Of a stretch of DNA of 61,373 nt, positions 42,884 to 43,458 are shown in pieces. Under the pieces are notes generated by a model. It was given only the letters and a program-made list of their open reading frames with translations. It did not search any database and had not been told where the DNA came from. The DNA is taken from positions 1 to 61,373 of the forward strand of contig CALRDS010000001.1 of assembly GCA_943354975.1 (NCBI GenBank), written 5' to 3'. Every line of letters starts with the position of its first letter. Position 1 is the first letter of the stretch. A program made the position numbers and the translations under genes. Source of the stretch: Candidatus Nomurabacteria bacterium (lineage in GTDB: Bacteria; Patescibacteriota; Minisyncoccia; Phycocordibacterales; UBA5272).

Positions 42884-43006
42884 TTAACGTTTACTCCAAG
42901 TAGGTGCTTTGCAGGCTTTTTTGAGACCAAATTTGTTAATAGTATTTTTTACTTTTACCACCCATATCACTCTTAGGAGAAAGGTTTCGTTGAACAGATT
43001 AATCAA
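42884..43006 (-). pseudogene. rpsI 3'-end duplicate that retains an open frame (S9-tail mini-ORF)
   Basis: Encodes ...[24 protein letters not shown], against authentic S9 ...[39 protein letters not shown]. There is a 48-nt in-frame deletion, and the last 16 codons differ at 6 synonymous and 1 non-synonymous sites. Confidence 0.5.
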
Positions 43007-43123
43007 CTACTGAGAAGATATTTACAAAAAAAACTAATTTTAAGTTAGAATAAGGTGTTGCACTTGGCGTTTGAAATTTAATATGTTTCAACATAAAAAA
43101 ATTATTAATGTTATATTTAAAAC

Positions 43124-43432
43124 ATGGAAAAATCTCCACAAAATGAATTTACTCATATAGCTGATCTACTGTCTAAAATAAACACTATTTCTCTCGATGA
43201 TATAAGACAATTCCAAAATAGTCTTCTACGGCACAATACTAAAATATTTGAAAGACTACCAATGCTCGAACAGAAAATTTTAGTAGCAATAAGTAAATTA
43301 ACAGAATCACAATTAGAACATATATATTATACAGCAGAAAAGGGAGGTCATATACTAGGACTTCATGATTTAAAAAACCATGTAAATTTCTACAAAGGAT
43401 TAACTACCAATACTGACCCAAAAATACACTAA
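43124..43432 (+). CDS. hypothetical 102-aa protein (AT-rich, host-like composition)
   Basis: Clean ORF between the rpsI duplicate and authentic rpsI. No family recognised. Confidence 0.5.
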   Translation: MEKSPQNEFTHIADLLSKINTISLDDIRQFQNSLLRHNTKIFERLPMLEQKILVAISKLTESQLEHIYYTAEKGGHILGLHDLKNHVNFYKGLTTNTDPKIH

Positions 43433-43458
43433 ATATTTTTAACGACTAAATAGGTTTG

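Follow-up and report, generated by a model that had tools for sequence, protein, structure and literature searches.

A second rpsI 3′ end downstream of the S9 gene in a Paceibacteria genome: a probable relic of the native gene end, displaced by inserted DNA

The rpsI–grpE region and its repeated S9 tail

The sequence analyzed here, referred to as the window, is a stretch of 61,373 nucleotides from a metagenome-assembled genome of a Paceibacteria host (Parcubacteria, CPR). Its minus strand carries, in order, rpoA, rplQ, rplM, rpsI, a spacer of 1.5 kb, grpE and dnaK. The rpsI gene (43459–43866, minus strand) is intact and encodes a ribosomal protein S9 of 135 amino acids, which matches the Pfam family Ribosomal_S9 over its full length (E = 2.6e-37). 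The closest relatives of this protein come from Paceibacterota and Nomurabacteria metagenome-assembled genomes, at up to 91% protein identity, and scans of genomes and metagenomes found nothing above this value. The grpE gene (41270–41917, minus strand; Pfam GrpE, E = 3.5e-37) is the conserved downstream neighbor and marks the far end of the spacer. The comparisons below use 160 related rpsI loci, designated by L-numbers, with the whole spacer of the window as the BLASTN query.

The spacer contains two ORFs, both of them orphans. The first encodes 102 amino acids (43124–43432, plus strand), is AT-rich, and converges on rpsI; a promoter-like site lies near it at 43088–43117. It is the only cargo of the segment between the two tails described below (42953–43458, the right-hand limit of which may be placed anywhere from 42953 to approximately 42990). 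This segment has a GC content of 25–30% and shows similarity to none of the 160 related loci. Among 5.8 billion proteins, the 102-residue product has no homologue except itself. The second ORF encodes 139 amino acids (42226–42645, minus strand); its sole match in the same number of proteins is again itself, and it is absent from the relatives. Neither ORF belongs to a Pfam or PHROG family. The distance from the rpsI stop codon to the grpE start codon in the relatives ranges from approximately 215–260 nt up to approximately 2.6 kb, and we therefore regard this variable spacer as a hotspot of gene gain in small CPR genomes.

The 3′ end of rpsI is repeated on the same strand at 42884–42952, 575 nt downstream of the gene, and this second copy may reach as far as approximately 42985. 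The corresponding stretch of rpsI is 43459–43591 (minus strand). Repeat searching and MAFFT alignment identified two blocks: a direct repeat of 54 nt (42884–42937 against 43459–43512, 81% identity, spacing 575) and a second block of 45 nt (42927–42971 against 43547–43591, 73% identity, spacing 620). The change in spacing implies a gap of 45 nt, or 15 codons, in the duplicate, located at approximately 42934/42935. The endpoints of this deletion are two in-frame repeats internal to rpsI, AAGAAACTTGGA (encoding KKLG) and AAGAAATTTGGA (encoding KKFG); because these are spaced 45 nt apart, the deletion stays in frame without any need of selection. What is left of the copy is 22 codons and a stop codon. 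Upstream of the deletion the similarity is marginal, in that 13 of 500 shuffles match its score and indels of 2 nt and 5 nt are needed. The stretch at 42953–42985 (minus strand), which aligns locally with gaps of 5 nt and 2 nt, is listed here as a possible frame-broken remnant of rpsI.

Over the last 16 codons, six of the codons that differ between rpsI and the duplicate are synonymous (GGA/GGT, CTA/CTC, AAG/AAA, GCT/GCC, AAG/AAA and AGA/CGT), and one is non-synonymous (CGT/TGC, changing Arg to Cys in the duplicate). The Arg concerned is invariant across the rpsI tails of the relatives compared. For the two tails, Nei–Gojobori counting yields sd = 7 and nd = 2; pS is 0.70, which is near saturation, and pN is 0.05. 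The synonymous excess is significant against neutrality (binomial P = 4e-4). Non-synonymous change is less in these last 16 codons than immediately upstream, which could indicate some constraint on the tail; at least 8 nt at its end take part in pairing with the adjacent hairpin R.

These results bear on an earlier note on this sequence. Its description of a second, same-orientation copy of the rpsI 3′ end is borne out by the repeat search, by MAFFT and by a second assembly, and its list of six synonymous codon changes and one Arg to Cys change is correct. The repeat does bracket the AT-rich gene on the opposite strand, and a hairpin element called R (see below) does follow the duplicate and not the authentic gene. 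The deletion is in frame and the stop codon is kept, as the note had stated, with the frame being set by the repeats; its length had however been put at 48 nt, against the 45 nt measured here.

The two tails share an identical block of 20 nt (43466–43485 in rpsI and 42891–42910 in the displaced copy, both minus strand; AAAGCACCTACTTGGAGTAA on the minus strand), found by direct comparison, which could mark the crossover region. An identical run of this length or more is present in 7.7% of equally diverged pairs of orthologous tails, so that the block is weakly unusual; as this is not significant, it was dropped as proof of a crossover core.

Origin of the two tails

In at least seven relatives (L009, L019, L020, L022, L035, L037/L098 and L099), R follows rpsI directly after the stop codon. 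In BLASTN, the duplicate and R of the window (42937 down to 42752) form a single colinear alignment with the authentic rpsI end and R of these relatives. The alignments extend over 136–191 nt at 76–81% identity in six of them (for example 163 nt at 81% in L009, 191 nt at 78.5% in L099 and 190 nt at 78% in L020) and over 76 nt in L019, and this block is the sole match of the spacer among all 160 related loci. The ending AAACGTTAA followed by AATATTGAG is common to the duplicate with R and to the rpsI–R junctions of the relatives. The duplicate ends in AAA CGT TAA, as in the relatives with R, while the present rpsI ends in AAG AGA TAA. The colinearity therefore identifies the distal copy as the old native end of rpsI and, given that this copy sits at the ancestral junction, it follows that the proximal tail arrived with the insert. 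We conclude that the duplicate is very probably the former rpsI 3′ end, left as a non-functional relic on the far side of the insertion. This agrees with the earlier note in two respects: it had read the repeat as the footprint of inserted DNA carrying its own rpsI 3′ segment, and had proposed looking for relatives in which R directly follows rpsI as the pre-insertion state, of which there are thus at least seven.

No empty site or donor of the same species was found. A recombination breakpoint within rpsI could not be mapped by segment-wise identity to the relatives, because the closest of these have at most 82% nucleotide identity in rpsI and the synonymous sites are saturated.

The age of the differences between the tails can be judged from the orthologues. 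We compared 58 distinct tail sequences from related genomes, every one of which encodes the same 16-residue S9 tail. They differ from one another by a mean of 8.5 of 51 nucleotides (range 1–17), all of these differences being synonymous. The two tails of the window differ at 9 of 51 nucleotides, which matches the orthologue mean, and the synonymous differences therefore very probably predate the insertion: they would be synonymous because the tails diverged within functional rpsI genes. The earlier note had argued that such a pattern is not that of neutral decay, and that the duplicate is therefore under selection. The argument does not hold, since divergence before the insertion accounts for the pattern equally well. 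More generally, a synonymous-biased, in-frame fragment beside its parent gene is no evidence of a selected peptide if the two copies can come from different lineages.

We infer that the proximal tail is of foreign origin and that it came in by recombination. The course of events would be as follows. A segment of approximately 0.5 kb, carrying the orphan 102-residue ORF and its own rpsI 3′ end from another Paceibacteria lineage, would have recombined with the chromosome inside the conserved coding sequence of the S9 tail. The incoming end (..TGG AGT AAG AGA TAA) would now complete rpsI, and the old end (..TGG AGT AAA CGT TAA) would have been kept beside its former neighbor, the R hairpin. Until they were recently joined, each tail would thus have belonged to a working rpsI gene in a lineage of its own. 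Since the insertion the relic would have been decaying, as suggested by the change of Arg to Cys, the 45-nt deletion (which may have arisen by slippage or recombination between the two in-frame rpsI repeats) and the indels upstream.

Recurrent insertions and the R hairpin

A scan of the relatives showed that second S9 tails with unrelated inserts recur in several Paceibacteria loci. In L016/L082 the insert is 1.7 kb long and contains two lineage-specific ORFs. The distal tail there is followed by a terminator and a gene for 165 amino acids, which in L011, L034 and L043 stands directly after rpsI, so that the distal tail is again the ancestral one; the incoming end carries a terminator of the type found 3′ of rpsI in L014, L034 and L043. 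The insert of L017 is also 1.7 kb long, with an ORF of 486 amino acids. Over the 10 codons shared by its tails, the five differing codons and the stop codon are all synonymous, including a serine switch (TCA/AGC). Smaller inserts are found in L149/L151, where approximately 90 nt are inserted, the ends of the first and second tails are 118 nt apart, and there are five synonymous nucleotide differences in four codons and no non-synonymous ones; and in L108, where a perfect 24-nt repeat surrounds a GC-rich insert of 98 nt. Three tails are present in L018/L090, and stacks of up to three occur in L017 and L018.

Ser-Lys-Arg-stop 12-mers are enriched approximately 9-fold within 400 nt after rpsI (13 in 51.6 kb, compared to 45 in 1654 kb). 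The inserts show no relationship with one another, and the rpsI homology that they carry ranges in length from 15 to more than 88 nt. The second tails differ between loci in length and in upstream sequence, with no ORF conserved. The S9-tail site has been struck repeatedly, and the newest insert always adjoins the gene. The stacked tails are a readable record of successive insertions.

Two further features of these loci were observed. The rpsI gene of L034 (2800–3207) is cut short by a TAA lying 18 codons ahead of the normal end and also has two replacements in the otherwise invariant tail, and from its sequence would be explained either by a sequencing error or by a damaged tail. In L002 (approximately 3432–3495), L007 (approximately 4394–4460), L018 (approximately 4394–4450) and L042 (approximately 3456–3510), the rpsI stop codon lies within a long perfect palindrome, in each case laid out as the last 11–14 nt of rpsI, a terminator hairpin, and an inverted copy of those 11–14 nt.

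R is a repeated hairpin of approximately 100–130 nt with a conserved core and a copy-specific outer stem, for which the final codons of the upstream gene provide the pairing partner. The copy next to the displaced tail (42768–42883, minus strand) begins immediately 3′ of the old stop codon. RNA folding gives −40.1 kcal/mol (z = −3.8), with a basal helix in which GTAAACGT (42887–42894), in the last codons of the old tail, pairs with ATGTTTAC (42768–42775). The consensus fold of seven orthologous copies contains 42 pairs, seven of which show compensatory changes. No known RNA family was found in Rfam for R or its region over 41000–45000 at E values up to 1. Other copies in the window are at 41167–41269 (minus strand), approximately 60430–60525 (minus strand) and approximately 18955–19080, and a further copy follows grpE in L027. 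Three of the window copies begin at the base after a stop codon, namely those of the old S9 tail, of grpE and of a class II aminoacyl-tRNA synthetase; in the intergenic copy near 19000, the outer stem is perfect over 18 bp.

The Rickettsia palindromic elements are palindromic repeats of approximately 100–130 nt, which occur in several copies per genome and can form part of coding sequence. R resembles them in being a palindromic repeat present in several copies per genome. It differs in lying at the extreme 3′ end of genes, in enclosing the stop codon, and in its copy-specific outer stem.

In eight of ten R-bearing rpsI loci (L007, L009, L018, L019, L022, L035, L037 and L099), a Lys-Arg-stop 9-mer and a terminator lie 14–18 nt after R (P approximately 1e-14). 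This older Lys-Arg-stop places R, with its own TCT AAA CGT TAA, between the Trp codon and an older tail. From its position in the sequence, R appears to have been inserted directly after the Trp codon, bringing its own Ser-Lys-Arg-stop. In the window, a tentative older and decayed tail remnant follows R at 42755–42767 (minus strand; AAAATATAATAAT, to be compared with AAGAGATAATAAT after R in L099), the sequence comparison not being significant by itself.

Such observations raise the question of whether the displaced tail has been kept as a part of a nucleic acid, either as the basal helix of R within a 3′ UTR or terminator, or as a recombinase site at which modules are loaded serially, each bringing its own Ser-Lys-Arg-stop, as in integrons or in elements that exploit Xer. 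The basal helix described above is kept in the relatives, and in the grpE-linked copies the grpE tail and the 3′ arm of R covary (NETA* in the window, NNKN* in L027); however, the pairing spans only about 8 nt of the 69-nt copy. For a recombinase site, one may cite the older Lys-Arg-stop and terminator after R, the tails stacked up to three deep in L017 and L018, the presence of the same two modules, R and a AGTAAGCGCTAA-terminator module, in reversed order in L037 and L007, and the lack of recombinases within the inserts. Against this, the variable length of the homology and the unrelated inserts are unlike a single attP family, no candidate recombinase was found in the scanned inserts or window ORFs, and the outer arms of R do not resemble the integron core sites RYYYAAC and GTTRRRY on inspection. 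Overall, we consider that a retained nucleic-acid function for the tail is possible but rather unlikely. An integron cassette array was rejected as such: no integrase was found in the scanned ORFs, and the outer arms of R (TCTAAACG and CGTTTAGA) differ between copies, as judged by inspection without an attC model.

A local tandem duplication of the rpsI 3′ region in this genome, with the ORF inserted later and the differences accumulated afterwards, would explain why the copies are close together and in the same orientation. However, a distal copy freed in this way should show approximately three-quarters non-synonymous change, contrary to the counts obtained, and neutral decay as far as a pS of 0.70 would have erased it beyond recognition. 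Furthermore, the TCA/AGC serine switch in L017, which changes no amino acid, is typical of genes that have long been separate and functional. This origin is therefore very unlikely.

The earlier note had also suggested that the duplicate is a selected mini-protein bearing the S9 tail, starting at GTG or TTG; this reading is considered here for a free peptide of 22–40 amino acids under purifying selection. There is indeed an open frame of 40 codons from a TTG (42884–43006), and the stop codon and the six synonymous changes to one non-synonymous fit such a peptide. The synonymous excess is, however, equally expected from divergence before the insertion, at a level seen between species; the in-frame deletion follows from the spacing of the repeats; the sole replacement strikes an invariant Arg; and upstream of VKNT the conservation is lost and indels appear. 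Between the second tail and the nearest in-frame stop codon before it, L016 and L017 contain no ATG, GTG or TTG and hence no conserved start, and no peptide is conserved across the loci. We regard a functional mini-protein as extremely improbable, and the duplicate itself as in all likelihood an ordinary insertion scar.

Misassembly, in which the rpsI ends of two strains would have been joined, might be suspected from the metagenomic source and from relatives whose contigs break off next to rpsI (that of L008 runs only 3 nt past the stop codon). Its probability is practically negligible, however: a separately made Logan assembly of SRR12053441 (L081) matches the window at 100% identity over 42221–43706, including both tails and the insert, so that the arrangement is no accident of a single assembly, and the same architecture occurs in several unrelated assemblies. 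A diversity-generating retroelement was also rejected, because the nine substitutions follow no adenine rule (A in rpsI at four sites and in the copy at two); no reverse transcriptase was found among the scanned neighboring ORFs.

Known systems and the route of insertion

We class the finding as a displaced target-gene end of a known kind. A flanking repeat is present in the same orientation; its proximal copy completes an intact rpsI and its distal copy lies at the ancestral flank; relatives have uninterrupted sites; and the synonymous bias is at the level of orthologues. The closest analogue is the icd/icdC pair at the attachment site of e14 (and of phage 21) in E. coli K-12. In that case, icd stands on one side of e14 and runs into the prophage, and the pseudogene icdC, a C-terminal fragment, stands on the other (PMC13626634). 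That excision of e14 alters icd at synonymous sites is reported in the same source, at second hand from Hill et al. 1989 (PMC13626634). As with icd/icdC, the insert in the window would supply the gene's 3′ end, the old C-terminal fragment lies on the far side, and the two ends differ mainly at synonymous sites. In contrast, e14, a prophage remnant of 15 kb, encodes its own integrase and is known to excise, whereas the insert in the window is approximately 0.5 kb long and has one orphan ORF and no recombinase.

Streptococcal ICEs and IMESag-rpsI integrate into the rpsI 3′ end (PMC4701971, PMC5090054). The target gene and the end of the gene are the same as in the window, and in each case S9 is left intact with its frame preserved. 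However, these elements are approximately 9 kb or more in length, with a tyrosine integrase and with mobilization or conjugation modules, none of which is present in the insert of the window; furthermore their host is a Firmicute, whereas the host here belongs to the Paceibacteria. As the insert is without integrase and mobilization genes, it is not an ICE or an IME.

In the window insert and in those of L016 and L017, no integrase, relaxase or other recombination gene was detected by Pfam and PHROG searches, and a further 20 ORFs of the window gave only housekeeping families and no recombination genes. No viral contig with an isolated S9 tail was found using a degenerate 27-nt pattern for KAPTWSKR*.

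In topology, a gene finished by incoming DNA with its former end moved away corresponds to an integrative element bearing a substitute 3′ end, or to a Campbell-type single crossover with a circle that includes an rpsI 3′ segment. Two routes of insertion may be considered. The unrelated inserts and the variable length of homology favor capture of rpsI-linked DNA through the conserved tail, and we lean, by a little, towards single-crossover, Campbell-type integration of a circular fragment. As in Campbell integration generally, where one crossover leaves the homologous stretch in duplicate, flanking the insert, the tail is found on both sides; however, the homology of 15–133 nt at approximately 82% identity is a poor substrate for RecA-type recombination. 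Homology-facilitated illegitimate recombination, for its part, usually deletes recipient DNA rather than duplicating it. One-sided homology, in which a conserved gene anchors foreign DNA, has been described (PMC3240628).

The second route, site-specific recombination by an enzyme acting in trans, is less probable but has a fair claim on attention because of the stacked tails, the recombinase-less modules and the insertion beside TGG. Integrated elements that lack a recombinase can be cis-mobilizable, with flanking att sites, or can exploit the Xer recombinases of the host. To judge from the sequence arrangement, the modules of the window and its relatives would resemble them in being small, in being bounded by repeats of the target site, and in having tails stacked as in tandem accretion; they differ in that the lengths of the repeats vary between events.

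An extended form of this route is more doubtful still. The last codons of rpsI in Paceibacteria may be a loading site for serially inserted recombinase-less modules, served by a trans-acting enzyme. The modules would be orphan genes, terminator palindromes and the R hairpin of approximately 130 nt, all placed beside the Trp codon, each bringing a Ser-Lys-Arg-stop and so pushing the older stops downstream. The window would then hold two or three layers. Should such a site-specific system exist, it would represent a novel way of acquiring genes among bacteria whose mobile elements are still poorly characterized. With the duplicate read as a relic of the native gene end, what remains of interest is the repeated, stacked insertion at the S9 tail together with R hairpins that enclose stop codons.

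Two minor observations were made elsewhere in the region. Downstream of the 139-residue ORF, a terminator hairpin at 42159–42196 contains the 10-mer CTACTTGGAG and AAAAAGCCT in the order and spacing of an S9 tail. Tentatively, this may be a third, reshaped tail remnant, or else chance or ordinary terminator sequence. The upstream regions of rpsI and dnaK that were inspected contain no Shine–Dalgarno sequence. A motif, TAGTTTACAGTT.TCAGTTTTTAGTT, occurs just upstream of start codons at 43879–43909, 47360–47390, 30685–30715 and 17451–17482, and by its placement may be a leader or promoter-like signal; similar ACTATTAAC repeats are found upstream of dnaK in relatives.
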